A DNA stretch of 64,000 bases from a virus (lineage: Duplodnaviria > Heunggongvirae > Uroviricota > Caudoviricetes): IMG/VR virus record IMGVR_UViG_3300042885_000900. One strand, given 5' to 3'. Shown here piece after piece: positions 5,752 to 61,991 of this stretch. The stretch's first letter is position 1. Every line of letters begins with the position of its first letter. Made by a program: the position numbers and the translations under genes. The notes beneath the pieces were generated by a model that was not told the origin of the DNA, did no database searches, and worked only from the letters and a program-made list of their open reading frames with translations.

Positions 5752-6309
5752 TTATTCATTATACACAATAAAGTTATGAACACTTGGTTGAGCTGGGTAT
5801 ATTCTATCGGGGTTACCCCACTTTGATTCATAGGTATACATTCTTTTGAGTTCATCGGGGATGTATTGATAAGTATTCTTGTAGTGGTCGCTTATCTTGG
5901 TTCGGAACTTGTGCATATCATCATCTTGAGTTGGGGATAGTTCCTCAAGGAACCCCCCAATTGCGTAAGAGGAGTTGTAGTCATTCTCTGGGTCCTTAAG
6001 TTTTATCTTCCAATAGGGGTTTAATGGAATGTTGAGGTAATCGGATAACATATAGAAGTCAACGTATAGGTCAATGACTGTTATAGAATCATACTTCTTA
6101 TAATCATCCCCATACTTCCATCCTTTAATGAATGGGTATTTCTTTGCTGTAGCTTTGGTTGTTATATCAAACCCTTTATCTATTAATTTATTTTCTTTCA
6201 TATTGTATAAATATATTGAAATAATGTTTGTGTATGTAATATATAATTTGAATTTATTTGGTATTGTGAAAACAATATCATATCTTTGTACCACAGAATC
6301 GGTAATCAC
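5752..6309 (-). CDS. Hypothetical protein
   Basis: ORF track. Confidence 0.6.
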   Translation of the reverse strand: MITDSVVQRYDIVFTIPNKFKLYITYTNIISIYLYNMKENKLIDKGFDITTKATAKKYPFIKGWKYGDDYKKYDSITVIDLYVDFYMLSDYLNIPLNPYWKIKLKDPENDYNSSYAIGGFLEELSPTQDDDMHKFRTKISDHYKNTYQYIPDELKRMYTYESKWGNPDRIYPAQPSVHNFIVYNE

Positions 6310-8623: not shown

Positions 8624-8980
8624 TTATTCACACTCTTTAATGTATTTTGGGAATATATCCACATCTTTTCCTATGTAATCCCATACTATGTCCCATACCT
8701 CATCTATTAAGTCATCATATCTACGCTGTACCGCTTGGGTTTGAGGCCAAAACTTGGTTCCTATTCCCCCGATAAATATTATGTCAACCCTGTAGGATAA
8801 GTAATTATTATCCGAATGTGGTAATTTGGTTCTGTTGTCCGGGTGTTTAACTTTTACACCACAGATAATATCTTGGTTATCCTTAACCAACATCTTATTT
8901 AATAACTTCTCTAATATTGGAGACAAATCCTTATTTACTTCTTCTATTAATATTCTTCTTATGGTTGTTTGTAAGTTCAT
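8624..8980 (-). CDS. MNLQ-leader family protein (MNLQTTIRRILIEEV)
   Basis: Shares the conserved N-terminal leader. Tight gene tandem. Confidence 0.6.
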   Translation of the reverse strand: MNLQTTIRRILIEEVNKDLSPILEKLLNKMLVKDNQDIICGVKVKHPDNRTKLPHSDNNYLSYRVDIIFIGGIGTKFWPQTQAVQRRYDDLIDEVWDIVWDYIGKDVDIFPKYIKECE

Positions 8981-8983
8981 ATC

Positions 8984-9547
8984 TTAATAGAATGTTTTTA
9001 ATTTCATATATGGTTCCAAATTATACTTGTCTATTATCTGTTTGAAGATTTGTTGTCTGTGTCTTAAACCTAATGTATTTTTTTGAGTGATAAAACCATA
9101 ACCAAATCCTGAATCCCCACTTAACCCCACAACTTTATAATAGGGTTGGTCATGAAGTTTTATTGGGTATAATCTTGCGGTGAACTTATACATCATATGG
9201 TCTTTGGCTCCGAATCTAAAATCACCCAATTCTTTTTCACCACGATGTTGTAGTCGTGTATTATCATTTAACCCAAGTTTTTCTACCAACGCGTCATGTA
9301 AATATAAAGACTTTTTGTCTACCGACATATATGCAAGTGGTGTGTGAGTATCTTCACTGAACTTCATAATATCTCCATCATAAAGAACACTTATTAAATA
9401 ATCAATCCCACCTATTAATTTAGATGTTACATCCATCCCTAATTTTTTTAACATGGATTTCATGGAATCTTTTTTTGATTCAGATTCTTCGGATATAACC
9501 CCACCCATCATTTGTTTTACTCTATCTATGTTCTCTTGTAAGTTCAT
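8984..9547 (-). CDS. MNLQ-leader family protein. Function unknown.
   Basis: N-terminus MNLQENIDRVKQMMGGVISE. Confidence 0.65.
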   Translation of the reverse strand: MNLQENIDRVKQMMGGVISEESESKKDSMKSMLKKLGMDVTSKLIGGIDYLISVLYDGDIMKFSEDTHTPLAYMSVDKKSLYLHDALVEKLGLNDNTRLQHRGEKELGDFRFGAKDHMMYKFTARLYPIKLHDQPYYKVVGLSGDSGFGYGFITQKNTLGLRHRQQIFKQIIDKYNLEPYMKLKTFY

Positions 9548-9550
9548 AAT

Positions 9551-9985
9551 TTATATCTTTATTTTACCAACAAAACATATTATTGACGTTAAACCTAATT
9601 CTCTTAACGCGTTTGCTCTGTGTGTCCCATCAATAATATCATACTCTTTAGTTAAAACTATTGGTGGATATGATTGTAATTCTTTGAATAATTCTATATA
9701 TTCCTCTAAATCATCTTCATCAATTTGATATACATCCATATCTATCTCATCAATAGGTATCTCTCTTACAACATAATACGGGTATTCCTCAATTCTATCC
9801 CCTAAATCCCCCTCCCAAAAATCTTCCTTTCTTTTATAATGTAACTTTTGGACATATGTATAAATTTCCGATTCTTCATATACATCACCAACCATTACAT
9901 TTGTGTTTGTAAATATGTGTGAGGTATTCTCATTAATAACCCCCATCATTTGTTTTATCCTGTTTGTTTGCTCTTGTAAGTTCAT
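9551..9985 (-). CDS. MNLQ-leader family protein with a ParB-like nuclease domain
   Basis: N-terminus MNLQEQTNRIKQMMGVINE. The motif IIDGTHRANALRELG is ParB N-terminal-like. Confidence 0.6.
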   Translation of the reverse strand: MNLQEQTNRIKQMMGVINENTSHIFTNTNVMVGDVYEESEIYTYVQKLHYKRKEDFWEGDLGDRIEEYPYYVVREIPIDEIDMDVYQIDEDDLEEYIELFKELQSYPPIVLTKEYDIIDGTHRANALRELGLTSIICFVGKIKI

Positions 9986-10033
9986 ACATATAAATATAAA
10001 AAAAAGGGAAATGTTACTTTCCCCCTCTTTTAA

Positions 10034-10660
10034 TTATCTTCTTATAAAGAAACTATCATCATCTCTCCTTATCTTCTTCATAAAGGAAAGGTAATCACCT
10101 GAATCTCTATACCCTAATGTTAATACAAGCGTGGATTTTAATCCTAATTCATCAAGCCCTAATACCTCATCTACTTGTTCCGGTATAAATCCCTCCATTG
10201 GCGTTGAATCTATTCCCTCTAGTGCTGATGCAACTAATGAGAACCCTAACCCTATATATGTTTGTTTCTGAGCCCATATTGTCTTCTGTTCCTCCGACAT
10301 ATTATTGATTGTTCCTATCATCATATTTTTGAAATCATTTAACCCCTCTATAGGAATATTTCTTTGTGTTGCCGTATCATTGATATATTTCTCCACCGAT
10401 TCTTCGTTGATTGTTTCCCATACAGCAAACACCAATACAGTTGATGAATCCTTTAGTTGTGGCTGTCCGTAGCACGCCGGAACCAATCGTTCTTTTAACT
10501 CTTGGTCCTCGATGACTATCACCTGATATGGCGTTAGCCCGTATGAACTAGGTGCCAACTTGGTTGCCTGCAATATTCTATCTAATTTGTCTTGAGGTAT
10601 TTTATCCCCATTCATTTTCTTGGTGGCATATCTCCACTCTAACGACTCTAATAATCCCAT
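10034..10660 (-). CDS. Nitroreductase-family protein
   Basis: The N-terminal RYATKKM...IPQDKLDRILQA..LAPSS.GLTPYQVIVI pattern is typical of NfsB-type nitroreductases. Confidence 0.65.
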   Translation of the reverse strand: MGLLESLEWRYATKKMNGDKIPQDKLDRILQATKLAPSSYGLTPYQVIVIEDQELKERLVPACYGQPQLKDSSTVLVFAVWETINEESVEKYINDTATQRNIPIEGLNDFKNMMIGTINNMSEEQKTIWAQKQTYIGLGFSLVASALEGIDSTPMEGFIPEQVDEVLGLDELGLKSTLVLTLGYRDSGDYLSFMKKIRRDDDSFFIRR

Positions 10661-10758
10661 AATATATCTTTTTGTTAATGAATAAGTAATTCTTCCCGGA
10701 TAATCAATATTATTGTTTTAATTTTGTCAAATAATTTGGTGGGATAGTTTTTATTACT

Positions 10759-10766
10759 TATCTTTG
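10759..10766 (+). promoter_or_regulatory. TATCTTTG box (Bacteroidota -7 consensus TAnnTTTG), 18 nt before the ATG of 10785..11507
   Basis: The same octamer appears upstream of plus-strand genes at 15366-15373 and 17765-17772. Confidence 0.55.
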
Positions 10767-10784
10767 CCCTCTAATTTAATTACT

Positions 10785-11507
10785 ATGAAAAACATACACG
10801 TATTACCAACAGAAAATTCAAGTAGAGTATCTTACAACAAAGATGGTGTTTTAGAATTACATAGACTTCAATGGAGAAAGAATACTCAAAACATCTATAT
10901 CACTTCTGATGAAGAAATTAAAGAAGGGGATTGGTATATTCATAAACAAATCAATTATTTGAGAGTATCTAATTCAAATTCTATACCAATGGATGCTAAA
11001 AAAATCATCCTAACAACAGACCAAGACCTAATCAAAGATGGTGTACAAGCTATTCCTGATGAGTTTTTAGAATGGTTTGTTAAGAATCCAAGTTGTGAGA
11101 AAGTTGAGGTTGTTAAAGAAATTAATAAATCTATATCTGCAAAAGAACCTTATTATAAATACAAAATCATCATTCCAGAAGAAGAACAAAAACAACATCT
11201 TATTGATATGATGGAACAAGATGAGCAATTAGGATTGTATCAAGAACCTAAAAAAGAAACACTTGAAGAAGCTGTTGCTAAAAAATTATATCCACTTAAT
11301 GATGGGTTTCAAGTAATGGATATTGATATTAGTGAAGAATTACAATTAGCTTTCCTTAACGGTGCTAAATGGCAACAAGAAAGAAGTTATAGTAAGGAAG
11401 AGGTTGAAACAATAGCTAAAGATGCTTATACTATGGGTAGAAATAATATTCTTATAGGAGTATTTAATAAATGGTTTGAGCAATTTAAAAAGAAAATAAG
11501 TATATGA
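10785..11507 (+). CDS. Modular-array protein A: N-module (MKNIHxLPT...IYITSDEEIKEGDW...KIILTTDQ) plus C-module (GAKWQQE...FEQFKKK)
   Basis: TATCTTTG box at 10759-10766. Paralogous to 11791.., 13493.. and 18057... Confidence 0.7.
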   Translation: MKNIHVLPTENSSRVSYNKDGVLELHRLQWRKNTQNIYITSDEEIKEGDWYIHKQINYLRVSNSNSIPMDAKKIILTTDQDLIKDGVQAIPDEFLEWFVKNPSCEKVEVVKEINKSISAKEPYYKYKIIIPEEEQKQHLIDMMEQDEQLGLYQEPKKETLEEAVAKKLYPLNDGFQVMDIDISEELQLAFLNGAKWQQERSYSKEEVETIAKDAYTMGRNNILIGVFNKWFEQFKKKISI

Positions 11508-11794
11508 AAAAAACAATTGAAGAAGTTGCTGAAAGATTAGTAAAAGAAACTACATTGTACGGAAGCCAAGAAGCTAGTATTGGAAGTTCTGCTAGAAGTT
11601 ATTTTGAAACAGAATTACGATGTGTGTTGTTGGGTATGAAATGGCAACAAGAACAAGACAAGAAAATGTATAGTGAGTTGGTTGATTTATTGGAAAGATT
11701 AACGACAATTTATAAAGAAGATTGTCATTTAGATATTAAGTACGATAAAAAAAGATTAGAATTTATTGAACAATTTAAAAAGAAATCATTATGA
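11504..11794 (+). CDS. Modular-array protein B. Free-standing C-module (KWQQEQDK...EQFKKK).
   Basis: ATGA overlap with both neighbours. Shared motifs. Confidence 0.6.
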   Translation: MKKTIEEVAERLVKETTLYGSQEASIGSSARSYFETELRCVLLGMKWQQEQDKKMYSELVDLLERLTTIYKEDCHLDIKYDKKRLEFIEQFKKKSL

Positions 11795-12540
11795 AAAACA
11801 TACATTTATTACCAACAGATAAACCAAGTAGGTTATACTTAACAAAAGAAGGGTTTTATTTTTTATTACCTAACATTAAAGGTAATGCTGTGAAATTTCA
11901 ACACATTTACATCACTTCTGATGAAGAAATTAAAGAAGGAGATTGGTTTTATAATATAATATCTTTAAAACCTGAACCATTTAAGGCTTGTGAAAATGGT
12001 AATGGATATGTAAATTGTAGTAAATATTCACATAATAGAATTGATTGTAAAAAAATCATCCTAACAACAGACCAAGAATTAATCAAAGAGGGTGTACAAG
12101 CTATTGATGAGGATTTTTTAGAATGGTTTGTTAAAAATCCAAGTTGTGAAAAGATTGAAGTAAATAAAAGTTATAGCGGTATTTATTATATCAAATATCC
12201 TTACAAAATCATCATTCCACAAGAAGAACCTAAACAAGATGAAATTGATTTTATGGCTAATGAACTAGTTATAGAAAAAGAAAAATTTGAAAGTAAAGAA
12301 ACACTTGAACAAGAAACTTGTAATTTTTGTGGTAAAACATTAAGAGAACAGATGAAAGGTTGTGGTGAAATAACTTGTTATAGACAGTTTTTACCTAAAC
12401 AAGAAACACTTGAAGATTTCTGCACTAGAGAACTATCAAATTTTAATGATAATGTAAGAAATACTCAGTTCGATTTAGGTTTTAGAACTGGAGCCATTAT
12501 TGGACTTAGATTTCCAAAAGAAAGAAGTTATAATGAGTAA
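11791..12540 (+). CDS. Modular-array protein C: N-module plus a Cys-rich segment. It is truncated by an in-frame TAA relative to its paralogs.
   Basis: Paralog alignment. The downstream in-frame remnant ends IIEQFKKK. Confidence 0.6.
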   Translation: MKNIHLLPTDKPSRLYLTKEGFYFLLPNIKGNAVKFQHIYITSDEEIKEGDWFYNIISLKPEPFKACENGNGYVNCSKYSHNRIDCKKIILTTDQELIKEGVQAIDEDFLEWFVKNPSCEKIEVNKSYSGIYYIKYPYKIIIPQEEPKQDEIDFMANELVIEKEKFESKETLEQETCNFCGKTLREQMKGCGEITCYRQFLPKQETLEDFCTRELSNFNDNVRNTQFDLGFRTGAIIGLRFPKERSYNE

Positions 12541-12687
12541 GAAGCTAGATCTTCTTTAACAGATTTGTCGTTAGTTAATCCTGCTCATTTAACAATGACA
12601 AGTGATGGTTATGGAGAGTTTCCTGATAGTTATAAATTAACTGAAAAAGGCATTAACTACATTATTGAACAATTTAAAAAGAAATAA
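12541..12687 (+). pseudogene. In-frame continuation of gene C after its stop. It encodes ...MTSDGYGEFPDSYKLTEKGINYIIEQFKKK, a detached C-module remnant, or a site of stop-codon readthrough.
   Basis: I translated this region myself. It is in the same frame as 11791..12540 and ends with the family-typical EQFKKK stop. Confidence 0.4.
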
Positions 12688-12688
12688 G

Positions 12689-12997
12689 ATGAAAAAAGAA
12701 ACACTTGAAGATTTTACCAAAGAAGTATTGCAAGATGAATTTTTTACAAATATGGCTGAATACGGAAAAGCTGAAAGACTTATTGAAATTGGAGCTAAAT
12801 GGCAACAAGAACAAGACAAGAATAAGTATAGTGAACAAGATATTTTAGATATAAATAATTGGTATTTGGAAACTTTTTTAGATGATGCTCTAGGTTTAAA
12901 TGGTAATGATGCTGAACAAAAAGTAAAGCATTTATCAGGTAAAGGTCTTACAAAAGAAGTTTTAGATTATTGGTTTGAACAAATTAAAAAGAAATAA
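12689..12997 (+). CDS. Modular-array protein D, C-module only (MKKETLED...GAKWQQEQDK...WFEQIKKK)
   Basis: ATG start chosen over the TTG start in the ORF track. Confidence 0.55.
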   Translation: MKKETLEDFTKEVLQDEFFTNMAEYGKAERLIEIGAKWQQEQDKNKYSEQDILDINNWYLETFLDDALGLNGNDAEQKVKHLSGKGLTKEVLDYWFEQIKKK

Positions 12998-12998
12998 G

Positions 12999-13262
12999 AT
13001 GAAAGAAACACTTGAAGAAGTAAAAGATTTAGCATACTACAGAGCTAATGCAGAAGAAGATTATTTGCAAGTGCCAATAAGTGTATTGAGGTATATCTCT
13101 GAGCTTGAAGAAAAAAGTTATAGTGAGGAAGATATGAAACAATTTGCTTGGGAATGTGTTGCCAATTTTCTTTCTAATAGTGATAATAAGGTGGAAATGG
13201 CACTTGTAGAAGTTATTATGGATAGAAACAGTAAACAGTTTGAACAATTTAAAAAGAAATAA
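12999..13262 (+). CDS. Modular-array protein E, C-module variant (MKETLEEV...FEQFKKK)
   Basis: ATG chosen over the TTG start. Confidence 0.55.
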   Translation: MKETLEEVKDLAYYRANAEEDYLQVPISVLRYISELEEKSYSEEDMKQFAWECVANFLSNSDNKVEMALVEVIMDRNSKQFEQFKKK

Positions 13263-13265
13263 GAT

Positions 13266-13496
13266 ATGGACTTTAGAACAGAATTATCAAAATGGGGCTA
13301 TAATAAAGGAAATTCAGTTGATGTTGAAACATTAATAGATGAAATATTGCCTGAATTATTTCTTAAACAAGAAAGAAGTTATAGTGAGGAAGAGGTTGAA
13401 ACAATAGCTAAAGATGCTTATACTATGGGTAGATATAATATTCTTATAGGAGTATTTAATAAATGGTTTGAACAATTTAAAAAGAAATCATTATGA
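13266..13496 (+). CDS. Modular-array protein F, C-module only. Its 45-aa C-terminus is nearly identical to that of protein A.
   Basis: ERSYSEEEVETIAKDAYTMGRYNILIGVFNKWFEQFKKK. Confidence 0.6.
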   Translation: MDFRTELSKWGYNKGNSVDVETLIDEILPELFLKQERSYSEEEVETIAKDAYTMGRYNILIGVFNKWFEQFKKKSL

Positions 13497-14443
13497 AAAA
13501 CATACATTTATTACCAACAGATAAACCAAGTAGGTTATACTTAACAACACACGAATATATTTTTGAAGAAGGATACTCTTTATCAACTGATGAATGTGAA
13601 AACAAACATATCTACATCACTTCTGATGAAGAAATTAAAAAAGGAGATTGGTATTATCTTCCAAGAACAAATTCAGTTTATAAATGTATTGAAGCAACTG
13701 AATTAAACTTAGAAAGAAGTTATGGCGTAGCTAAAATCATTCTAACAACAGACCCTGAGCTTATCAAAACTGGTGTACAAGCTATTGATGATGAGTTTTT
13801 AGAATGGTTTGTTAAAAATTCAAGCTGTGAGAAGGTTGAAGTAAATAAAAGTTATAGCGGTATTTATTATATCAAATATCCTTACAAAATCATCATTCCA
13901 CAAGAAGAACCTAAACAAGATTGGTATTGTCCTAAATGCCAAAGTTATGTTAGTTCAGAAAGTGTAACATTTGAAGAAACACATCAAATATGTAATACAA
14001 GTGTTGTTATAAAAGAACCTAAACAATCAACTAAAGATAGAATATTATCTGAAACACCTGAGTTAGTAAAACAAAAAGTAAGAGAAACTGCTAATAAGTT
14101 AGTGGAACCTAAACAAGAAACACTTGAAGAAGTCGCATTAAAATTATATCCAATTATTTTAGAATATGATGATTGGGATAAAAATAAGCAATACAGAGAT
14201 GAATGGATTAACGGTGCTAAATGGCAACAAGAAAATATACCCATTTGTATTTATGCTGAAAATATTTACTGTCATATTGAAAATGGAGTTGTAATTGTTG
14301 AGAAAAATGATAAATCGGTAATAAGTTATAGTGAGGAAGATATGAGAAAAGCTATTCAAGAAACAATTACTTTGATGAGGTATAAAGCCACTGAATTTAG
14401 AGAACACGAAAATACTATAATTGGACGATTTAAAAAGAAATAA
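13493..14443 (+). CDS. Modular-array protein G: N-module, CxxC segment and C-module
   Basis: Paralog of A and C. Ends RFKKK. Confidence 0.7.
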   Translation: MKNIHLLPTDKPSRLYLTTHEYIFEEGYSLSTDECENKHIYITSDEEIKKGDWYYLPRTNSVYKCIEATELNLERSYGVAKIILTTDPELIKTGVQAIDDEFLEWFVKNSSCEKVEVNKSYSGIYYIKYPYKIIIPQEEPKQDWYCPKCQSYVSSESVTFEETHQICNTSVVIKEPKQSTKDRILSETPELVKQKVRETANKLVEPKQETLEEVALKLYPIILEYDDWDKNKQYRDEWINGAKWQQENIPICIYAENIYCHIENGVVIVEKNDKSVISYSEEDMRKAIQETITLMRYKATEFREHENTIIGRFKKK

Positions 14444-14469
14444 ACCATTCTTATTTATCTCCCCTCGTA

Positions 14470-14736
14470 TTACCATAGAACCGCATTACAATAACTATGG
14501 ACCGCACCTTCAGTCATATTGGTTTTATGACAATGTTGTAGATGTATTGGGTTATTTAAAAATCCCTCCGGAAACAATCGCCAATTTATTGGCTTCTTTG
14601 TTATTCTTTCAGGGGCAACCTCATCTAATGTCTCCCCACAATACATACATAGATTATCCTGTTCTTTGATATATTGTATTCTAACCTCTCTTCGTTGTTG
14701 AGGTTTTAATTTTGTATAATCTGTTGGTAATTTCAT
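14470..14736 (-). CDS. Small HNH-type zinc-finger nuclease
   Basis: CMYCG ... HLQHCH ... HSYCN matches the CxxC/H-N-H arrangement. Confidence 0.45.
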   Translation of the reverse strand: MKLPTDYTKLKPQQRREVRIQYIKEQDNLCMYCGETLDEVAPERITKKPINWRLFPEGFLNNPIHLQHCHKTNMTEGAVHSYCNAVLW

Positions 14737-14737
14737 A

Positions 14738-15304
14738 TTATTGGAGTCTCACAGGTATCTTATGTTTGGCACCATCGGTTCTTGAATATACAGCATATTG
14801 TGGTGTCATTATCATTTCATTATGCTCATCACCCAACATATTAATATAATCATTACCTTTGCCAGGTTTAAGATATGCAATAGTCATATGTGGATAATAG
14901 TCAGGGTAATCACTTGTGAATGGAAATTGTTTTAATTCCTCGTTTGTATCATTTAGATTATCCCCCATTATATCATACTTTAATACATCATACTTTGGGC
15001 TGTTGAAACAAGATAGGTTATGAGCTTTACAATTTGTGTATGTATATTTGTTTAACACATTAATTATGTCGTCAATACTCACCTCGTTATCGTGTAATCC
15101 GTATAATAATGTACAATGTGATTCCGGTTCTAAACCAAACCCCTCTTCTTCGGTGTATAAGTCATCAGGGTTTATCTTGTTGTGTAATTCCGTAATAGTA
15201 TCAGGGTTAAAGTATAACATTGCACAAGAATATGGATATACTTGTTTGTTCTCATTTATCCCCATCATTGTTTTGATTTTTGTTATCTGTTCGTTTAATT
15301 CCAT
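14738..15304 (-). CDS. 2H phosphoesterase (LigT-like) carrying a variant of the MNLQ leader (MELNEQITKIKTMMGINE)
   Basis: Two H-x-T-x motifs are present, HCTLLYGL and PHMTIAYL. Confidence 0.6.
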   Translation of the reverse strand: MELNEQITKIKTMMGINENKQVYPYSCAMLYFNPDTITELHNKINPDDLYTEEEGFGLEPESHCTLLYGLHDNEVSIDDIINVLNKYTYTNCKAHNLSCFNSPKYDVLKYDIMGDNLNDTNEELKQFPFTSDYPDYYPHMTIAYLKPGKGNDYINMLGDEHNEMIMTPQYAVYSRTDGAKHKIPVRLQ

Positions 15305-15390
15305 ATATGTTTCTTTTTATTTATAATAATAAGTATTTTTTACCACGTTATCAATAGGAATGTTTTATCTTTGTATGATATTTATTTAAT

Positions 15391-15732
15391 ATGAAAATAA
15401 TAATAACTGAAAGTAGATTGGGACAAATCGCCATTAATTGGTTAAATAAGAACTATGGTGATTTGGAACCATATGAAACCGGAAAATATCCTGAATATAT
15501 TTTCTATAAAAAAGGTAATGAAATAATCTTTGATTACAATAAAAAAAATGGGTTTGTTAATGTGAATTACGATGAAATTTGGTCATATTTTCAATCGTTT
15601 TTTGGTATGGAATATAAACAAATTCAAGACTTAACAAAGGTATGGGTGGAGGAACGTTACAATTTAAGGGTGACAAGAACCAAAACCATTGTATTCCTCG
15701 GGATTGATGGGTGGAGGAACGTTACAATTTAA
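15391..15732 (+). CDS. MKIIITE-family paralog. Its 3' end lies within a 32-bp direct repeat.
   Basis: TATCTTTG box at 15366-15373. Family C-terminus VWVEERYNLRV. Confidence 0.65.
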   Translation: MKIIITESRLGQIAINWLNKNYGDLEPYETGKYPEYIFYKKGNEIIFDYNKKNGFVNVNYDEIWSYFQSFFGMEYKQIQDLTKVWVEERYNLRVTRTKTIVFLGIDGWRNVTI

Positions 15733-15740
15733 GGGTGACA
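15644..15740 (+). repeat. 32-bp direct repeat gggtggaggaacgttacaatttaagggtgaca, two copies (15644-15675 and 15709-15740), with a degenerate third copy at 15772-15798
   Basis: Read directly from the sequence. It overlaps the 3' end of 15391..15732. Confidence 0.6.
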
Positions 15741-15987
15741 GAAACAACCTTTGCGACTTTAGCGTCTTTGCGGTGGTGGAGAAGGAACATTACAAATTAA
15801 TAGTAAATAGTAAAAACATAATAAGCTATAGATGTATTCTATAACTTATTATGGCTATAAGGTTCGGGACTTATTTTGTGGGTTTATAAGGTTTGGAACT
15901 TATATTACACATTTTGGTAATATGTGGTGAATTATACTTATCTTTGGTGAATTGTGGTTATATTAATCACCCGATGGTGAAATATAC

Positions 15988-16452
15988 TTATTTGTAATAG
16001 TTTAATGTGTCAAGCATAAATAGGAAAACATCATTTAATGTGTGATTATCAAAATTTTTGTATTTCTCCTTAAAATCTGATTCATGATAACCCTCGTAGT
16101 AAACATCTATTACAGCAGATTCCGGACCAAAATACTCTATCTGTCGTACCTCATCGCCTGATATACTATATGGGACAGGACTTAAACCTAATTCATATAT
16201 AGAAATTCCGATTGTATTATAAGGTTTTGCTAAATGTTGAACCGAATCTTTAATGAAATCAATCTTATCTTCTTTTGTTAAATTAAAACTATCACCATAC
16301 ATATTCTTAATAGTATCATAACCACCGAAAAGTTTAATGGTGTAATATAACCCCATCTTATCAATCATTTTTTGTATCTTTGTGGTCTTATCATCCTCAT
16401 TGATAACCCTCATCATTTGGTGGATTCTATGTATATTCTCTTGTAAGTTCAT
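15988..16452 (-). CDS. MNLQ-leader family protein. Start taken at the MNLQENIHRIHQMM Met.
   Basis: Conserved leader. The nucleotide context ttgtaagttcat is shared by all members. Confidence 0.6.
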   Translation of the reverse strand: MNLQENIHRIHQMMRVINEDDKTTKIQKMIDKMGLYYTIKLFGGYDTIKNMYGDSFNLTKEDKIDFIKDSVQHLAKPYNTIGISIYELGLSPVPYSISGDEVRQIEYFGPESAVIDVYYEGYHESDFKEKYKNFDNHTLNDVFLFMLDTLNYYK

Positions 16453-16453
16453 A

Positions 16454-17227
16454 TTATTTTTCTTCCGGTAATTTAGTATCTTTGATAAATTTCTTATGTG
16501 AATCCTTATATGATTTTTCTGTCTCATCATTCACATCTTTGGTATATTGCCAATTCCAATATAAATCATCGTTTGGTTTGAATCCGTAGAACTTATGAAC
16601 TTCTTTTTGTGTTTCACTTACAACTTCACCATTCCAATTCTGACCAACACAGATGAATCCTGTCTCAATATCCTCAACAAGATTTGATTCCCCCAATGTT
16701 GCGTGTCTGTTCTCAATCCAAGTCAATCTCTCAATTAAGTTTTGGTAGAACATATTGGTTTGTCCCCACCTTACCGAACTAAAGAATATAACTGCGTCTG
16801 ATTCAAATAACTCTTTGGATATCTTCCATAGTTCGTCTTTAGGATTATTAATACTTGCCCAACATCTATGGTCTCCGGATGGATTCTTTTTCTTATCTTT
16901 GAGCATTGACTTTAATATCCCACAGCTGTTCCCGTCTTTTCTTGATACATTCCCCTCACAAGGAACAATATTAAGTTCGGAAACATCAATTAATACTGAC
17001 TTATCACCCAACTCATCGTTAAGATACATTGCAATCATCTTTGATTTTGGTATGTCAAGGTTTTTTTCATCCCAATTATATCTGTTGGAACAACTCAATA
17101 ACAATACCTTTTTCTTTTTCTTTAGAATGTCTAATGTTTTCTTTATTGATTTCCATGCGTCCGATTGAACCATCTCCTCAGCAATCATCATCTCCCTTAT
17201 TCTTTGTATATTTTCTTGTAGGTTCAT
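16454..17227 (-). CDS. MNLQ-leader family protein with a flavodoxin-like / NAD(P)H-dependent FMN reductase-like domain
   Basis: N-terminus MNLQENIQRIREMMIAEE. The KKVLLLSCSNR...VIFFSSVRWGQ pattern is flavodoxin-like. Confidence 0.5.
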   Translation of the reverse strand: MNLQENIQRIREMMIAEEMVQSDAWKSIKKTLDILKKKKKVLLLSCSNRYNWDEKNLDIPKSKMIAMYLNDELGDKSVLIDVSELNIVPCEGNVSRKDGNSCGILKSMLKDKKKNPSGDHRCWASINNPKDELWKISKELFESDAVIFFSSVRWGQTNMFYQNLIERLTWIENRHATLGESNLVEDIETGFICVGQNWNGEVVSETQKEVHKFYGFKPNDDLYWNWQYTKDVNDETEKSYKDSHKKFIKDTKLPEEK

Positions 17228-17724
17228 TCTAAATTAAGTATTTCTTGTTTAATCTTTAAGGTTTCCTGTTTTAGTAAATCAAAATACTTATATAACTCAT
17301 CATTTCTATCGTATAACTTTTCTATTTCCTCTGTATAGTCCTCATCAGGGTGTGTGTTATATAAAAGTTCAAACACTCTATCATCATTTTTATCGTGCTC
17401 TCTTCTATAATTGTTATACTCAATCAATTTGGATATATCAATATTTAAATTCTTATCTTTGACGTAAGATATTAGTTTTTCAACTAGTGAGTCCGATGTA
17501 AAACTGTTCTCATCATCTAAGAACGATTCCACGGAACCAATCTGAAATTCAAATTTGTCTATGTTGTTTATAATGTTTTCTATGCTCGTGTTTATAGTCA
17601 CATCATTGTCCTTTGCAGACTTGTTTAACCCCTTCTCTATTTGTTTTACAGTGTATGACGATTTAACCTCGGAGATAATCCCCATCACTTCCTGTATTCT
17701 AATTATATTTTCCTGTAAGTTCAT
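17224..17724 (-). CDS. MNLQ-leader family protein. Function unknown.
   Basis: N-terminus MNLQENIIRIQEVMGIISE. Confidence 0.6.
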   Translation of the reverse strand: MNLQENIIRIQEVMGIISEVKSSYTVKQIEKGLNKSAKDNDVTINTSIENIINNIDKFEFQIGSVESFLDDENSFTSDSLVEKLISYVKDKNLNIDISKLIEYNNYRREHDKNDDRVFELLYNTHPDEDYTEEIEKLYDRNDELYKYFDLLKQETLKIKQEILNLE

Positions 17725-18056: not shown

Positions 18057-18866
18057 ATGAAAAACATACACTTATTACCAACACAATCAAAAACAAGATT
18101 ATTTTTATCTGACTATGGTAAAATACTTAATTTAGCGAGTTATCCTGAAACATTTTACACTACAGGTCAAAACATCTACATCACTAATTCAGAAGAAATT
18201 AAAGAAGGAGATTATGTATGTGCTTCAGGTGGATTTAGATTTGTTAAAACTTTAAATAATGATGCAAGAACATTTAAAGATGATGGAATTGTAAGCAAAG
18301 AAAGTCCATCAAACAGTTGTCATTTATCTAATTATAAAAAAATCATACTAACAACAGACCAAGACTTAATTAAAGATGGTGTACAAGCTATTGATAATGA
18401 TTTCCTTGAATGGTTTGGTAAGAATCCAAGTTGTGAGGAGGTTGATTTTGAGGTTGTTGATGATAATATACAATGGTATAAAATAATCAATCCAAGAAAG
18501 AATTTCTATTGTGGTGATGAAGTTGATTATGGTGATAAATGTTCAGAGCAATGTGTCCAATGTGTAAACGCCACCGGTGTTGATTACGGATATCTTCCGA
18601 AAGAACATGTTGAATTTATTAATGATAATATTGATGAATTTGATGAAAAGATTAAGGAGTTCAAACAAATAGACCAAAATAATCCTGTCACAAGAGGTAG
18701 TACTGCTTTAGTATATAAACAAGAAACACTTGAAGATATTAAACTTGAAGAAGTGGTTGGGAGTAAGCATTGTCGATATTCGGTCATCGAAAATAAGTTA
18801 TCTGTACTCTATAGAAATCAAGAACAAATTTTAAAAGCTATTAAAATGTTAAACAATGGAAAATAA
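18057..18866 (+). CDS. Modular-array paralog: N-module, a Cys-rich segment and the KQETLED junction
   Basis: MKNIHLLPT...NIYITNSEEIKEGD...KKIILTTDQDLIKDGVQAIDNDFLEWF. Confidence 0.7.
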   Translation: MKNIHLLPTQSKTRLFLSDYGKILNLASYPETFYTTGQNIYITNSEEIKEGDYVCASGGFRFVKTLNNDARTFKDDGIVSKESPSNSCHLSNYKKIILTTDQDLIKDGVQAIDNDFLEWFGKNPSCEEVDFEVVDDNIQWYKIINPRKNFYCGDEVDYGDKCSEQCVQCVNATGVDYGYLPKEHVEFINDNIDEFDEKIKEFKQIDQNNPVTRGSTALVYKQETLEDIKLEEVVGSKHCRYSVIENKLSVLYRNQEQILKAIKMLNNGK

Positions 18867-23361: not shown

Positions 23362-23691
23362 TTATTGTAAAACACCTTTTTGTGTGTGATGTATAATTTT
23401 AACCGGTAATTCAAACTTATCTTCAAACCAATTTTTTATCAATTTTTTATATTCCGGTGGTGTATAACCGAAATAAACTATAGGTGCAAGAATATCATCA
23501 CAAATATATAAAGCTCTTGTCTTTTCACCGTAAATCATTATAACACCATCACCATTTCTATAATCAATTCTCTTATGTTCTCCTGTTGAATCTGTAATAT
23601 AATCAACATCAATATACATATTAGAAAATGCTTTATCCAATTCTTTTTTTGCTAATTCGTCTCTACGACTTTCTTTTATTACTATTCTCAT
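23362..23691 (-). CDS. MKIIITE-family paralog (MRIVIKESR)
   Basis: N-terminal motif. C-terminus NWFEDKFELPV. Confidence 0.6.
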   Translation of the reverse strand: MRIVIKESRRDELAKKELDKAFSNMYIDVDYITDSTGEHKRIDYRNGDGVIMIYGEKTRALYICDDILAPIVYFGYTPPEYKKLIKNWFEDKFELPVKIIHHTQKGVLQ

Positions 23692-24308
23692 ACATCATTT
23701 GATTTTATATTATAGACACTTCTGTATCTACTTTTTAAGTCATAATCACTCAAAGCTTCTAACTCACTAATCCCATATAACGCATTTTTATAAAGATAAT
23801 TAATCATTTCTTCTCTACTTAAATTATCAGTACTAACCATTTGATAACATTTATGCCAAGCATCTAATCCGTGAGTTTCATCAATCTCTATTTCCGGATG
23901 ACCAATCTCTTGTCCAAACTTGGTTGTGTATTTATCGTCATACCATTCAGTAATAACATTAAATATAAAGGTTTTTCTAACCTGTAATATTTTAGATAAA
24001 TAATTAATCTCTTCTTTATCAACATATAAATCACCGGCAAAAAACTTTACATCCTCCACATAATCGGGACCATAATTTTCATCACCATCATTCATAAAAT
24101 TATACCTCGCCTCAATAATAATTTTATCTCCTTTACACCATTCCTCATTATAGTTCCCGTAATTCTCTTCAGTAGGTGGAGTGACTCTTGTTGTATTAGA
24201 GATAATTTTCTCCATATGTTTAATAATAATTGATTTAGCAGCGTCTGTACCTCTGATAAATCGTTTACTAACTTCTTCTCTTAATATCTTTTTAATTAAA
24301 TCTTTCAT
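23688..24308 (-). CDS. Hypothetical protein with the N-terminus MKDLIKKILREE
   Basis: ORF track. The N-terminal motif is shared with 38424..39362. Confidence 0.55.
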   Translation of the reverse strand: MKDLIKKILREEVSKRFIRGTDAAKSIIIKHMEKIISNTTRVTPPTEENYGNYNEEWCKGDKIIIEARYNFMNDGDENYGPDYVEDVKFFAGDLYVDKEEINYLSKILQVRKTFIFNVITEWYDDKYTTKFGQEIGHPEIEIDETHGLDAWHKCYQMVSTDNLSREEMINYLYKNALYGISELEALSDYDLKSRYRSVYNIKSNDV

Positions 24309-25297: not shown

Positions 25298-25929
25298 ATG
25301 TATAAATATAACACGAGAGTAAAAATTACTCCCATCTTTTGAACGAAGGTAATTTTGAGTTCTTTTTACTCTCGTTTAATTCTTTTTATCTTATATTTCG
25401 TTTGCAAAATGGAACACAATGCGTAGAAAAGGGCGAATGAAATATATTACCAATCACCGCAAGATGAACCTTAATTTTTAGGGTTTATATTACCACCAAA
25501 AGTAATAAACCCCCAACAATGTGAGGGTTTACTTTTTTTTCATAAGTTCTCTTATTTCTATCTGTAATTGATGTAGTTCAGGGTCAGTCATAAGTAGATA
25601 ACGCGATTTAATATCCCGATAATTATTTCGTATATCATTGATTGTCCATTTTAAAAATAGAGTAATTAAGTCAATTTTTATTTTTAGGTTTCTCATCTCT
25701 TAATATATCGTAAATCGCTAGACAGCAAAAAATAACCAACAATAATATAAAACCGTACAACGGGAATATTGGGTCGGGTATCACAACTTTTATGGTAATA
25801 GATTAGGGAAGATTAAGATATCTTCGTCTGATAAATACTCATCATCATCGAATTGTTCCATTTTTTTGTGATATTATTTCAATTATTTAAATATATTTGT
25901 ATTTTTCTGTTAAATATTCTTTTTTTTCA

Positions 25930-29648: not shown

Positions 29649-29709
29649 ATCACTATAAATATATCAAAATTAAATAATAGGTTAATATATTTATTATAAA
29701 ATAACCTTT

Positions 29710-38423: not shown

Positions 38424-39362
38424 TTAATGTATGAATTCAAATGTTGAATTATCCTCTGATAAATACTTTTCATTACTTGAGATTATTTGTCGTTTTATCC
38501 CATTTTCAACCTCTTCAACAAATCCCGGAATATTTTGGTAGTCATTATCAACAACCATTTTATTATTAACAACTTTACCGGCTTTAATTATTGTAATAGT
38601 AATTTTAATTTTCCCACCTTCTTCTTTAATATCTGAAATGGTATAACTTACTTTTTTTGCCGTATCACCATAACCCAAAGTCAATAATTTTTTAGAACCA
38701 ACTAATTCAGATTTAATTTTTGTTGTAAAATTTACCACTTTTGCATTATTAATCTCCTCTAAAGTATAAACACCATACATAAGACCTTTAATATCGTCTT
38801 GAGTAACTTTTATAACATCACTCTTTAAATCTGAACTATAACTTATCGGATTAACTTGGGACATTTGTTTGGATGTTGACATAGAATAAGTGTCTGACAC
38901 TTTAAACCACATATTATTGATAAATAAATAAATTGGATACCATCCATATGATGTTATAACATAATACCATTCATTTTTTCTATTAACATCCCATTTACCC
39001 TCAAGATTAGACCCTTTAAATGGCATTTTAGCCGAAGCATACTCTGAAGCTTTATTATTTGGTGTCTTACTTTGTTTAAATAATCTATAATCTTTGAAGT
39101 TCTCTTTGGTTAAATTTTCATAGTCCCCATCTTCCCTAAAATTTGCAGTATAAACTTCATAATAAAATAAAGCATCTCTGGATGGTAATCCAAAAACATC
39201 CATCATCCTTTTAATTAAATCAACTAATATTTTTTTAGTCTTTGCCTGATGTTTGTGTTTGTTAAGGTATTTGAAAAGTAATATTTCCTTTTTTGATAAA
39301 GGATTTTCATTTTCACCACCTTCAAGCTGTTCTTTTAATATTTTCTTAATTAAATCTCTCAT
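38424..39362 (-). CDS. Hypothetical protein. Start taken at MRDLIKKILKEQ.
   Basis: Its N-terminal motif is shared with 23688..24308. The start abuts the stop of the upstream gene. Confidence 0.55.
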   Translation of the reverse strand: MRDLIKKILKEQLEGGENENPLSKKEILLFKYLNKHKHQAKTKKILVDLIKRMMDVFGLPSRDALFYYEVYTANFREDGDYENLTKENFKDYRLFKQSKTPNNKASEYASAKMPFKGSNLEGKWDVNRKNEWYYVITSYGWYPIYLFINNMWFKVSDTYSMSTSKQMSQVNPISYSSDLKSDVIKVTQDDIKGLMYGVYTLEEINNAKVVNFTTKIKSELVGSKKLLTLGYGDTAKKVSYTISDIKEEGGKIKITITIIKAGKVVNNKMVVDNDYQNIPGFVEEVENGIKRQIISSNEKYLSEDNSTFEFIH

Positions 39363-45261: not shown

Positions 45262-45621
45262 TTAATCTAACCCCAAGAAATGAATACCTTTATCAATAAT
45301 ACTACCTTCTTGAGATACACAACTTTTGAATATTTGAACATCTGAGTCAGGCATTTTACTTTGTGTTGCAGGACCCCAAATACCGTCCACAGGATAAACA
45401 CCAATTTTAGATTGGTATTTACTCAATGCTTGTTTAACACTATCACCCAAGAGTCCATCAACTTTTAGTGGTTGATTCTTATCATCTCTATGTCCTTTTT
45501 TATTTAAAAAACATTGAATACCTTTCTTTAATTCAGGACTTTCATTTTGTTCAGTAACCAATCCGTATATTGAACGGATATCACTTCTTTCTTCTTCGGA
45601 AATTATAAATCTTTTTGCCAT
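45262..45621 (-). CDS. Protein with a peptidoglycan-binding (PG_binding_1-like) domain
   Basis: LKVDGLLGDSVKQALSKYQSKIGVYPVDGIWGPATQ. Confidence 0.5.
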   Translation of the reverse strand: MAKRFIISEEERSDIRSIYGLVTEQNESPELKKGIQCFLNKKGHRDDKNQPLKVDGLLGDSVKQALSKYQSKIGVYPVDGIWGPATQSKMPDSDVQIFKSCVSQEGSIIDKGIHFLGLD

Positions 45622-45664
45622 AATAAATCTTTTAGTTATAAATATACAGAAAACAAAAAAGAGG

Positions 45665-47572
45665 TTATAACACCTCTTCTTTTAATTCTAATTTTGTCTG
45701 TTTCTTATCATCAATGAATGCTTGAACTCTTTTCCGAGCAACTTCCGTATAATCCGGAGATAACTCAATTCCAATCCATCGTCTCTCTAATACTTCTGCC
45801 GCTACAGCTGATGTTCCACTTCCCATAAAGGGGTCAAGAACAATATCATCCTTATATGTAAGTATCTTAATCGCCTTCCCAGGTATATCCATTGAGAATG
45901 TGGCTTTAGTTAATGATTTAGTATCTGCAAAATATTCCCACCTTCCAAACACCAAGTTCATAAACTCTTTCTTGTCCTCATCCTTATAAACCATCTTATT
46001 TTTGATGGTTCCATCTTCCTGAATTACTTTAGTTGGTTCTCCTTCCCATTGGGATTGTCCTTTAAGTAATTTCTTACTCGTTTTCTTATAAGCCAATATG
46101 ATACACTCTTTTGGGTTATAAATATAGGGGCTCGACGCTGACATCCATGAGTTACCACACCACACTAATTGTCCTGATTTTTCAACTAATAATGTTTTAT
46201 TAGGTACTGACACACAATAAACTTTATCATCATAATCAATTGTGGTAACATTTTTTTTCTTTATATAACTTTGTTCTTTGTTGAGGATTTGAATTGTTGT
46301 CATTGGGTAATTAGATTTTATTATTTTACCATTCCAAAGTCTATCTTTCGCAAAATAACTATATAATGAACAAATTCTCCCCGATTCAAATAATAATCTA
46401 AGAATTTGGTCTTTCATTATCTCACTACATACAGAAATTTTCCACAATTCATTGTCTTTAGTAAAAGACCCATCACCATAAAATATCCATAATAATAATA
46501 TTTCTTTCTGTCTTTTAGACATATTAAAAACATAATCAGGTATTGTTCTTAAATTTTTACTTTTTGTATCAAGTAAAAACGACGCCAATTGTTTTGAACA
46601 ACAAAAATATTCGTTTTTTTGTTTTTTATATTCAAAATTAAATGGCAATCTCTCCAACAATTCTTCAATTTCTTTTAAAAATTTTATTTTTGTTTGATAA
46701 ATAGATATTTTGTATATACCTCGTTTAACATCATACGTTAATGAACCATCTGTTAGAAAAATACCTAAAAATCTCATCCAATCATCCGCATCAACAATTA
46801 CCGAATCTTCATTTCTATATATTTTTTTACTTCTTAACCCATACTCTACAGGAGGTATCACAACAGTTTTCACATCCACAACATTATTTAACCCATTATG
46901 ACTTCTAGGTATTGTGAAAACCTCTTGAGTTATCTCATTAAATGGTATAACGTCTATTTTAGAGTTGTCTACTCTAACCATATTATGGTTTTCTGTTATA
47001 GTAAGATTAACCGAACGAGTTTTAATATTTACTAATTTACCTTTAAATGGTTTTTCAATATAATCAAAAGCCTTTTGATACTCAATTTCTTTAGTTGTAG
47101 GATTTAATGTCATAAATAAATCCGTCTTAATATCAACATCCTTAAAAAATTTAAGACCATTATTTGTCATAACTTTAGTTTCATTATCATAACAACCCCA
47201 AGCAGTTTGTCTCACTCGGTGTGGTGAATCCTCAGTTAAATCAACCATCCCGTAAAATTTAAAACCAACTTCCTTCATCTTCATCCAAAATTCAGCGTTG
47301 AATAATATTCTACCTCCTCTTTCTTGAACATTCACTTCTATTGGAACATTGATGGCGATTCTTCCGTCATCCTTTAACACTCTATACGCTTCAGTTAACC
47401 ATTTTGTCGTAAAATCCCAATACTCATCCATTGGAATACTATCATTATACACATCGTATTTGATGTTAACAGAATATGGTGGACTAGTCACCACTAAATC
47501 CACACAACCTTCAGGAAATGTTCCCATAACCTCAACACACTCACCATTTATAATCTTCCCTGTCTCTATCAT
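45665..47572 (-). CDS. Orphan DNA methyltransferase (N6-adenine/N4-cytosine beta class) interrupted by a 348-aa intein carrying a LAGLIDADG endonuclease
   Basis: Extein motifs are DLVVTSPPY (motif IV) and DPFMGSGTS (motif I). The intein starts at CYDNETKVMT and ends at VWCGN followed by S. LAGLIDADG blocks are LGIFLTDGS and LLWIFYGDGS. Confidence 0.75.
   Translation of the reverse strand: MIETGKIINGECVEVMGTFPEGCVDLVVTSPPYSVNIKYDVYNDSIPMDEYWDFTTKWLTEAYRVLKDDGRIAINVPIEVNVQERGGRILFNAEFWMKMKEVGFKFYGMVDLTEDSPHRVRQTAWGCYDNETKVMTNNGLKFFKDVDIKTDLFMTLNPTTKEIEYQKAFDYIEKPFKGKLVNIKTRSVNLTITENHNMVRVDNSKIDVIPFNEITQEVFTIPRSHNGLNNVVDVKTVVIPPVEYGLRSKKIYRNEDSVIVDADDWMRFLGIFLTDGSLTYDVKRGIYKISIYQTKIKFLKEIEELLERLPFNFEYKKQKNEYFCCSKQLASFLLDTKSKNLRTIPDYVFNMSKRQKEILLLWIFYGDGSFTKDNELWKISVCSEIMKDQILRLLFESGRICSLYSYFAKDRLWNGKIIKSNYPMTTIQILNKEQSYIKKKNVTTIDYDDKVYCVSVPNKTLLVEKSGQLVWCGNSWMSASSPYIYNPKECIILAYKKTSKKLLKGQSQWEGEPTKVIQEDGTIKNKMVYKDEDKKEFMNLVFGRWEYFADTKSLTKATFSMDIPGKAIKILTYKDDIVLDPFMGSGTSAVAAEVLERRWIGIELSPDYTEVARKRVQAFIDDKKQTKLELKEEVL
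46151..47194 (-). mobile_element. Intein (Hint domain plus LAGLIDADG homing endonuclease) inside the methyltransferase gene
   Basis: Cys at +1, N-terminal splice junction after ...RQTAWG, C-terminal Asn then Ser. I mapped the boundaries myself by translating both junctions. Confidence 0.65.
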
Positions 47573-54279: not shown

Positions 54280-54290
54280 TTTATTTAGAT

Positions 54291-59081: not shown

Positions 59082-59113
59082 TTTTTAAATAATATTTATA
59101 TGTGATAAATAGT

Positions 59114-59419: not shown

Positions 59420-59422
59420 CTA

Positions 59423-61882: not shown

Positions 61883-61991
61883 TGTCTCTTTATATATAAA
61901 TAATCGTTTATTTGATTTTTAAATAAAAAGATACAAACAATTTTATTTTTATAAATGGGACAAAAAAAATCCCCAATCAAGGGGATTATAT

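Follow-up and report, generated by a model that had tools for sequence, protein, structure and literature searches.

Here, we describe an N-terminal peptide, the leader, with which seven minus-strand genes begin between 8.6 and 17.7 kb of a 64,000-nucleotide stretch of Caudoviricetes DNA (IMG/VR record IMGVR_UViG_3300042885_000900; the whole stretch is called the window), and which is followed in each of them by a further protein part, the cargo. The leader is a peptide-level, sharply bounded module that is restricted to viruses. With moderate confidence, drawn from sequence and from analogy, we propose that it is a modular and cleavable capsid-targeting propeptide, the functional counterpart of the capsid-targeting sequence (CTS) of phage T4.

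Results

A shared leader on seven genes

The open reading frame (ORF) listing of the window contains seven minus-strand ORFs at the positions given by the first-pass annotation of this DNA, which had read a single leader on all of them. This holds for six, which begin with near variants of MNLQENIxRI+xMMG followed by [LIV]-x-E. The seventh, at 8624-8980 (MNLQTTIRRILIEEV), is divergent and carries a second leader class, MNLQE.IRRILREE, that is also present in related loci. The I/V/L-x-E ending that had been noted for every copy is indeed seen in seven of seven. The genes are not adjacent as first described; they form three blocks (8624-9985, 14738-15304 and 15988-17724) with plus-strand genes of another paralog family between them. 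The back-translated 20-mer pattern ATGAAYYTACARGARAAYAT matched the window four times against 0.06 expected, and none of 100 shuffled sequences gave four or more matches. In a six-frame scan of the 64 kb the leader motif was confined to these gene starts.

Two of the blocks are three-gene leader operons. The first opens with g9985 (9551..9985, minus strand as are all seven; 144 amino acids (aa); leader MNLQEQTNRIKQMMGVINE at 9929-9985) and contains g9547 (8984..9547; 187 aa; leader MNLQENIDRVKQMMGGVISE at 9488-9547) and g8980 (8624..8980; 118 aa), the gene with the class 2 leader (MNLQTTIRRILIEE, with L-I-E at residues 11-13). The second opens with g17724 (17224..17724; 166 aa; leader MNLQENIIRIQEVMGIISE at 17668-17724) and contains g17227 (16454..17227; 257 aa; leader MNLQENIQRIREMMIAEE at 17174-17227) and g16452 (15988..16452; 154 aa; leader MNLQENIHRIHQMMRVINE at 16396-16452); a longer version of the g16452 ORF, up to 16530, adds in-frame sequence upstream and runs into g17227. 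Between the two operons lies g15304 (14738..15304; 188 aa), which starts MELNEQITKIKTMMG and has the leader MELNEQITKIKTMMGINE at 15251-15304. The cargos were said to diverge completely, which is correct for most pairs: once the first 20 residues are removed, g9547 and g16452 remain similar over about 33 further residues (E=0.002), with a common K.LG...T.KL.GG.D stretch, and the remaining pairs are unrelated.

Anatomy and boundary of the leader

The leader consists of an amphipathic helix over residues 2-14, with L3, I7, I10 and M13/14 as hydrophobic positions, then Gly15 and a linker to [L/I/V]-x-E. Among 55 non-redundant proteins, and at positions not forced by the search pattern, residue 15 is Gly in 49 and residue 16 is Leu, Ile or Val in 48; exchanges at positions 11 and 12 are between similar residues. 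In 87% of these proteins an [LIVM]-x-E motif ends at residue 19-20, as compared to 11% of control windows of eight residues taken from the same proteins, and the information per position falls to background right after it. Class 1 leaders end in I-N-E, L-T-E, I-S-E, I-T-E or L-N-E, and L-R-E lies inside class 2. Serine is the most frequent residue after the boundary Glu (P1').

The helix is moderately amphipathic (hydrophobic moment 0.50 in class 1 and 0.76 in class 2). An AlphaFold2 model of g17227, built with 38 homologs, predicts an isolated helix at residues 3-16 (predicted local distance difference test score, pLDDT, 33-44), an unstructured linker at 17-23 that contains I-A-E-E, and a confident alpha/beta domain from residue 24. 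As modeled, the leader is structurally separate from its cargo.

Distribution and interchangeable classes

A degenerate leader DNA pattern was found in more than 119 IMG/VR stretches on contigs of 15-318 kb. Within these stretches are 153 leader ORFs, of 176 aa in the median and 384 aa at most; stripped of the leader, 135 of their proteins fell into 45 unrelated cargo clusters. The first-pass annotation had proposed searching phage proteins with a hidden Markov model (HMM) of the leader. Such an HMM recovers 263 N-termini in these loci, and a profile built from the window sequences and the returned fragments matched 731 clusters (50% identity; E<=1e-3) among 1.84 billion representative proteins, nearly always from residue 1. 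A search with a 45-residue leader profile sampled short fragments only and is informative on specificity, not on cargo.

In 185,579 bacterial and archaeal species genomes the DNA pattern was found on one contig, a 3.3-kb fragment of 31% G+C content (GC) with five successive leader genes that is evidently mis-binned phage DNA. Fragments of the phage group (CAZYEM010000367.1; P0013 and P0089) also occur in metagenome-assembled genomes labeled "uncultured Bacteroides sp.", "bacterium" and "Candidatus Fonsibacter sp."; these labels probably reflect binning by low GC (31%) rather than the host. The leader motif had no match to a Pfam or PHROG family, its strings had none in the full-text literature searched, and 50,697 phage records gave no match to the 8-18 kb region (megablast) or to g17227 or the consensus leader (tblastn).

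The non-redundant cargos number 74 behind class 1 and 26 behind class 2 leaders, about 100 types in our sample. Class 2, which includes g8980, has the consensus MNLQE[SHT]I[RK]R[IV]LREE and occurs in the same loci. Two further N-terminal types were distinguished, class 2b (M[KR]DLIKKILKEE) and class 3 (MK[IV]IITE[SN]QL...), and 29 cargo families carry more than one of the four. The window itself has further genes with such related or interchangeable peptides. Class 2b is represented by genes at 23688..24308 (minus; MKDLIKKILREEV), whose cargo has class 2 or 3 leaders elsewhere, and at 38424..39362 (minus; MRDLIKKILKEQLE), whose cargo family is also found behind class 1 leaders. A peptidoglycan-binding protein at 45262..45621 (minus) has the leader-like N-terminus MAKRFIISEEERSDIRSIYGLVTEQ (compare ...RIKEMMGLVTE) and, upstream, the promoter-like box TATTTATA treated below.

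About a dozen window genes start with MK(I/F/L)(I/V)ITE(S/N)(K/R/Q), namely those at 541, 3050, 3736, 21210, 21611, 21994, 23691, 24918, 36411 and 40293 on the minus strand, one at 15391 on the plus strand, and an internal start at about 8200. In related loci, peptides of this MKIIITE type replace the MNLQENI leader on homologous cargo, for example in the pterin-4a, "YDWAEYDCGMG" and 302-aa families. The MK(I/F/L)(I/V)ITE peptide may be a third leader class, with I-T-E at residues 5-7. The exchange of classes on homologous cargo argues that they do the same job, one not bound to a single nucleotide sequence.

In the protein database six two-cargo fusions (P0232, P0248, P0252, P0253, P0254 and P0259) retain a full internal leader in which Met is replaced by T, R, K or N, as in ...KDT-NLQEQINRIQSMMGVINE-GLHDTSW.... 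At the DNA level, about 2 Mb of loci with 240 leader hits yielded no internal leader that lacks Met. The fusions are perhaps polyproteins that the head protease resolves, or else artefacts of assembly; if real, they are suggestive of a role at the peptide level that is linked to a protease.

Cargo proteins

Two of the cargo assignments made at first sight are borne out. The 2H phosphoesterase, g15304, matches Pfam Acb1 above the cut-off (1.9e-6; 28.1 bits against 27) and PHROG 755 (1.1e-9) and has two H-x-T motifs, HCT and HMT; Acb1 acts against the cyclic oligonucleotide-based defense CBASS. The flavodoxin-like NAD(P)H quinone/azo-reductase fold of g17227, which has no Pfam match, is recovered by Foldseek with NQO2, azoreductases and MdaB (probability 1.0; TM score about 0.4-0.5; mean pLDDT of the model 66). 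This family is the most widespread cargo, with 3,847 clusters under the JGI label WrbA. The assignment of g9985 as ParB/Srx-like is weaker: several PHROG ParB-like families match (2.5e-4 to 3e-3) and the DG(T/H)HR motif is present (IIDGTHRANAL), but ParB_N in Pfam scores 17 bits (E=0.006), below its cut-off of 26.3. Homologues of this cargo sit behind leaders in IMG/VR loci. The g9547 cargo, like that of g17724, has no Pfam or PHROG match; g9547 has orthologs in three of the loci (L016, L106 and L120), and its family, like those of g16452 and g8980, is unassigned.

Cargos are small, with a median of about 170 aa, and most of 99 non-redundant ones were unmatched in Pfam. Those that are recognizable lean toward effector types: an ADP-ribosyltransferase (ART-PolyVal), dual-specificity and toxin-type phosphatases, Acb1, ParB-like proteins, and M15/VanY peptidases with PG_binding_1. 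P-loop kinases, DUF2237 and pterin-4a dehydratase were also recognized. The PG_binding and M15 peptidase cargos are found in other loci behind both class 1 and class 2 leaders.

Conservation of peptide and of nucleotides

The first codons of the seven genes had been described as conserved in nucleotides. Codon choice in the leader is indeed biased beyond genome usage, and there are synonymous differences at several sites. The window copies encode conserved residues by TTA/CTA, CAA/CAG, GAA/GAG, AAC/AAT, AGA/AGG and GGG/GGT, and in 62 non-redundant leaders from public viral contigs the counts are TTA 26 and CTA 34, GAA 40 and GAG 22, AGA 35 and AGG 27, and ATT, ATA and ATC 36, 14 and 12. Other positions are more uniform than genome usage, with AAC in 56 of 62 at N2 and ATA in 60 of 62 at I7, and CTA, AGG and GGG are enriched. 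Selection on the peptide is therefore clear from the synonymous variation, and the uniform codons at other sites show that a nucleotide-level force acts as well. Across the window and the related loci (L001-L119), leader codons 2-15 shun U at third positions and favor AAC, ATA, CTA/TTA, AGG and GGG, a bias that may come from shared descent or from a constraint on mRNA near its 5' end.

The DNA upstream of leader genes showed no conservation and could not be aligned. Gene conversion was considered as the source of the nucleotide likeness and rejected, since the same codon is shared at a rate of 0.65 within loci, barely above the 0.60 between loci. Purely nucleotide-level conservation had been listed as grounds for refuting the targeting idea, and this is not a valid criterion: T4 ipII and ipIII are themselves identical in nucleotides over all of their first ten codons.

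A T4-type head module in sister contigs

Among the large ORFs of leader loci, PHROG profiles identified a major head protein, a portal protein and the T4 hallmarks RnlA/gp63, Pnk and clamp loader. With T4 proteins (AF158101) as tblastn queries, homologs of gp20, gp21 and gp23 were found in about 20 leader loci, with E values of about 1e-24 for gp20, down to 4e-19 at 29-31% identity for gp21, and about 1e-22 for gp23. The head genes follow the T4 order of portal, gp68-like protein, 141-aa protein, protease (227 aa), acidic scaffold and major capsid protein (MCP). A 245-aa protein matches T4 gp68 weakly (4e-4). As in a T4-type prohead core, an acidic protein of 391-424 aa lies between protease and MCP in the sister contigs. 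The g17227 ortholog lies close to the MCP gene there, two or three genes past it.

In the scaffold position (locus L050, 5493-6710, and orthologs) stands a protein with numerous [LIV]-x-E sites and an extended poly-acidic run (EEEEKVEDETEVSEQPTSDEEDTDDMSDDD...). These features would suit a gp22-like core that the protease breaks down, and the protein is a candidate for the receptor to which the leader helix binds.

In the protease of this clade, a member of the gp21 family (S77) exemplified by L050 6798-7481, the catalytic residues His85 and Ser140 of T4 gp21 and its autocleavage site L-I-E9 are invariant; the protease was confirmed in at least 568 stretches on contigs of up to 287 kb. In 13 of the 31 protease-centered loci of at least 15 kb, a leader gene lies 5-8.6 kb downstream. 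Single contigs join the two as well: on 3300031787_000001 (287 kb) the protease lies at 52-73 kb and a leader gene at 133-140 kb, on 3300002835_000001 (298 kb) MCP and leader lie at 226-230 kb and a second leader at 284-298 kb, and 3300042895_001344 (217 kb) has the protease/head module and a leader within one locus. Just before its conserved core the clade MCP carries an invariant L-I-N-E60 (next residues AAV) and a GSFE (next residue T), the latter aligning with GSFLTE-AEIGG of T4; its L-I-N-E holds the tripeptide with which many leaders end. The highly expressed structural genes have no leader.

The DUF5872 and WrbA-like proteins of the window share 80-87% identity with their orthologs on the flanks of this head module, and many more accessory genes are common to the window and other leader loci. 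On these grounds we regard the window phage as a member of the T4-type clade. A 13-kb locus on a 322-kb IMG/VR contig is 89% identical to window DNA in nucleotides, IMGVR_UViG_3300042482_000702 (322 kb) and 3300023184_000027 (208 kb) are examples of contigs of the window lineage, and window genes recur on assemblies of 0.2-1 Mb. Placement of the lineage by the non-leader proteins of the window was uninformative, the matches being dominated by a promiscuous tRNA nucleotidyltransferase.

Promoter-like boxes

A promoter-like box, TATTTATA, lies at 9989..9996 (minus), 3 nt upstream of the g9985 ATG and behind the terminator of a nitroreductase gene, and the clade portal genes have the same box at the same spacing. 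Read on the coding strand, its sequence is that of the T4 late box TATAAATA in reverse complement. Preceded by an optional G, the box stands before 94-100% of protease, scaffold and portal genes, as compared to 15% of other genes and 0.9% expected. Boxes lie 3-25 nt upstream of start codons, and a spacing of 3-5 nt implies nearly leaderless mRNAs. In the window further copies are found at 6206-6213, 25301-25308, 29654-29661, 45637-45644 and 61895-61902. The T4 late promoter TATAAATA itself was tried as a timing marker and discarded, as it is not enriched in the window (28 copies against 20 expected) and clade head genes have none before them.

Other genes of the window and its flanks

Two leaderless minus-strand genes stand among the leader genes: a nitroreductase gene at 10034-10660 (PHROG 2.3e-44), followed by a hairpin and T8 terminator at about 9998-10025, and, directly downstream of g15304, a gene at 14470-14736 for an 88-aa endonuclease VII-like zinc protein. 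The plus-strand paralogs between the leader-gene blocks (within 10785-14443 and 18057-18866) begin with MKNIHLLPT(D/E)KPSRL, with copies at 10785, 11791, 13493 and 18057. Small ORFs at 11504, 12689, 12999 and 13266 are interleaved with them, and all end in a common C-terminal tail, ...W(F)EQFKKK. The family shows modular shuffling of N- and C-termini, and no family match was found for it.

The window is phage DNA and encodes a collagen-like fiber, two Fib_succ_major proteins, an intein-containing methyltransferase, and lipoprotein and signal peptides of bacterial type. The fiber module (52012-61882, minus) encodes a 1,596-aa protein with at least 20 collagen triple-helix repeats and proteins of 755 and 819 aa with one Fib_succ_major domain each; TATAAATA lies 11 nt before the fiber gene and TATTTATA before the 819-aa gene. 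At 45665-47572 (minus) an N6/N4 DNA methyltransferase is split by an intein with a LAGLIDADG homing-endonuclease domain, and beyond the right end of the window a Dam-type methyltransferase adjoins a LAGLIDADG ORF (L126/L127).

The 10 kb past each window end encode DnaJ, Hc1, a leucine-rich repeat protein, Dam methyltransferase, ClpP and a family 2 glycosyltransferase. The host-like genes (L129 12239-12976; L126/L127 552-728 and 2363-3286) are those of a bona fide ClpP (9.5e-49), a full-length DnaJ with J domain, zinc finger and C-terminal domain, and a histone-like Hc1. A Lon-type protease was considered as a constant neighbor of leader genes and rejected: the commonest large neighbor (796 aa) has no Pfam match and is thus not a recognizable Lon.

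Discussion

The first-pass annotation suggested that the leader addresses enzymes to the virion. What stands of this idea is a peptide module that ends in [LIVM]-x-E, precedes about 100 cargos and occurs in contigs with a gp21-family protease. By analogy with T4, the leader helix would attach the freshly synthesized protein to the scaffolding core while the prohead assembles. After closure of the shell, the gp21-family prohead protease would cut behind the leader Glu, and the mature cargo would remain in the head to be ejected with the DNA into the next cell. Many cargos are of conflict or take-over enzyme types.

Several observations weigh against capsid targeting. The idea calls for a prohead protease elsewhere in the genome, and one of the gp21 family is present in sister contigs, but searches of the window and of about 10 kb beyond each of its ends gave no head gene or gp21-like protease, so that the clade membership of the window phage, and with it a protease of its own, is inferred from relatedness. 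When class 2, 2b and 3 peptides are counted, about one fifth of the window genes are tagged, which would be a very large load for a capsid. Cargos are acidic, with a median isoelectric point of 5.6, in contrast to the basic internal proteins of T4, and some (the P-loop kinases, pterin dehydratase and DUF2237) resemble ordinary metabolic enzymes. The TATTTATA box precedes 16.7% of leader operons as compared to 22.4% of other and 59.8% of head operons, so that expression timing lends no support. The leader has no significant similarity to the T4 CTS and shares with it only Q-E-x-I (MNLQENIQRIKEMMG..E here; the 10-residue MKTYQEFIAE in IPII and IPIII). Finally, the departure of leader codons from genome usage points to some nucleotide-level force.

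Some of these observations would be expected if the leader were an intracellular docking or assembly helix by which many accessory enzymes are tethered to one hub, be it a phage factory, a DnaJ-like chaperone of the phage, a membrane patch or a compartment, with the Glu end as part of a binding epitope. The arrangement would recall the peptides that fill bacterial microcompartments with enzymes. A helix with a flexible linker suits such a role, as do the acidic, enzyme-like and partly metabolic cargo, the very large share of tagged accessory genes, the lack of enrichment of leader operons for the head-gene box, and the DnaJ gene adjoining the window. We consider this unlikely, yet the most serious competitor of capsid targeting. 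No candidate gene for a hub or compartment was identified, whereas the boundary motif fits the specificity of the protease family of the clade, including its conserved autocleavage site, and capsid targeting is the one experimentally established precedent for a common short N-terminal peptide on unrelated proteins of T4-type phages.

It is quite improbable that the leader is an N-terminal degron or regulatory tag, read by an AAA+ protease for the timed removal or activation of accessory proteins. ClpP is encoded about 8.5 kb from the window (Pfam CLP_protease) and the leader is exposed and flexible in the model, but degrons are seldom so long or so conserved, and this reading leaves the conserved [LIV]-x-E boundary unexplained. 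The leader is not known to resemble an N-terminal motif of ClpX or ClpA. The PHROG match to an "ATP-dependent protease" comes from a single protein.

Least probable of all is conservation mainly at the nucleic-acid level, with the leader DNA as a translation-initiation enhancer or a site of recombination or gene conversion and the peptide incidental: the codon bias, the tandem arrays in a hyperplastic region and the nucleotide identity of the T4 CTS between ipII and ipIII are outweighed by free synonymous variation, codon sharing nearly equal within and between loci, unconserved upstream DNA, leader classes of quite different nucleotide sequence that swap on homologous cargo, the absence of the leader from the most highly expressed genes, and the full Met-less internal leaders of the rare database fusions, even though none of these was seen at the DNA level. 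A role in recombination may well exist alongside targeting without replacing it.

A broader proposal can also be made, tentatively and as possible rather than probable: that the clade runs capsid-based effector delivery with interchangeable address tags on a scale not yet described. In each genome, tags of classes 1, 2 and 2b, and possibly the MKIIITE peptides, would bring small enzymes into the head by the dozen for co-injection, and across the clade the cargo families would run to hundreds, including Acb1-like, ADP-ribosyltransferase (ART), phosphatase, nuclease, kinase and peptidoglycan-hydrolase types, with occasional two-cargo polyproteins resolved by the head protease.

Such a tag would be a sequence-only handle for the proteins that uncultured phages deliver with their DNA. 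It would single out the first-acting proteins, rich in anti-defense and host-takeover enzymes and otherwise hidden among hypotheticals, and the share of a giant-phage accessory genome given to pre-packaged effectors would become testable. The principle of the T4 CTS would prove to be ancient, with room to grow from about 3-5 proteins to cargo families in the hundreds. For engineering, the tag and its cognate protease would offer a portable, protease-removable packaging signal for turning capsids into protein-delivery vehicles.

Comparison with known systems

The closest precedent is the capsid-targeting sequence of T4 internal proteins IPII and IPIII, reportedly described by Mullaney and Black in 1996. 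As here, a short N-terminal peptide that ends in [L/I]-x-E, and that is conserved in nucleotides as well, is carried by unrelated small proteins encoded by tandem genes in a variable region, with anti-defense functions among the cargo. T4 likewise has a gp21-family protease and the order portal, core, protease, scaffold and MCP, which is found here in sister contigs. The T-even internal proteins are diverse defense proteins that share only the CTS (PMC3012670). The protease gp21 trims small N-terminal peptides off IPI, IPII, IPIII and Alt and removes 65 residues from gp23, 10 from gp24 and nine from itself (PMC9958956), and record X04567.1 gives IpIII and IpII as adjacent precursors that lose residues -10 to -1. 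In sequence the T4 cut sites are L-T-E65, L-R-E10, L-I-E9 and I-A-E10, all of them [LI]-x-E.

Judged by sequence, the leader differs from the T4 CTS in its distinct and longer sequence, its several interchangeable classes and a cargo repertoire that is orders of magnitude larger. It is twice as long and built as helix, Gly and linker, and at least two to four classes replace one another. The cargo families number in the hundreds and are acidic and often enzymatic, in contrast to the handful of small and basic T4 proteins. The phage lineage described here is uncultured, and its contigs measure about 200-320 kb.

Proteases of giant phages cut after A-x-E and also release propeptides of 20-24 residues, as exemplified by the N-terminal propeptides of 20 and 24 residues in SPN3US (PMC10052503). 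PhiKZ, 201phi2-1 and SPN3US resemble the present system in having heads with dozens of different proteins and processing by a gp21-like protease that cuts after the Glu of x-x-E, with Ser favored at P1', the residue that is commonest there in our leaders. They differ in a motif of A/S/G-x-E instead of L/I/V-x-E, and in propeptides that are mostly 111-254 residues long and do not form a common portable sequence.

Cargo peptides of bacterial microcompartments and encapsulins, short amphipathic helices with a flexible linker, also send diverse enzymes into a protein shell, and the shells of encapsulins have the same HK97 fold as phage capsids. Encapsulin signals mostly lie at the C-terminus, and cargo peptides of either kind are not known to be removed by a maturation protease, unlike the leader proposed here; moreover, no such shell genes were seen in our data. 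As a concept, capsid-packaged and co-injected anti-defense enzymes are shared with the anti-restriction Dar proteins of phage P1 and with polyvalent proteins, which travel with phage or conjugative DNA, and one cargo here matches ART-PolyVal and others have ParB-like domains. Those proteins are large and multidomain and are loaded by hierarchies of protein-protein interactions with no common short cleavable tag, whereas the present system has its domains on many small proteins, each with a tag of its own.

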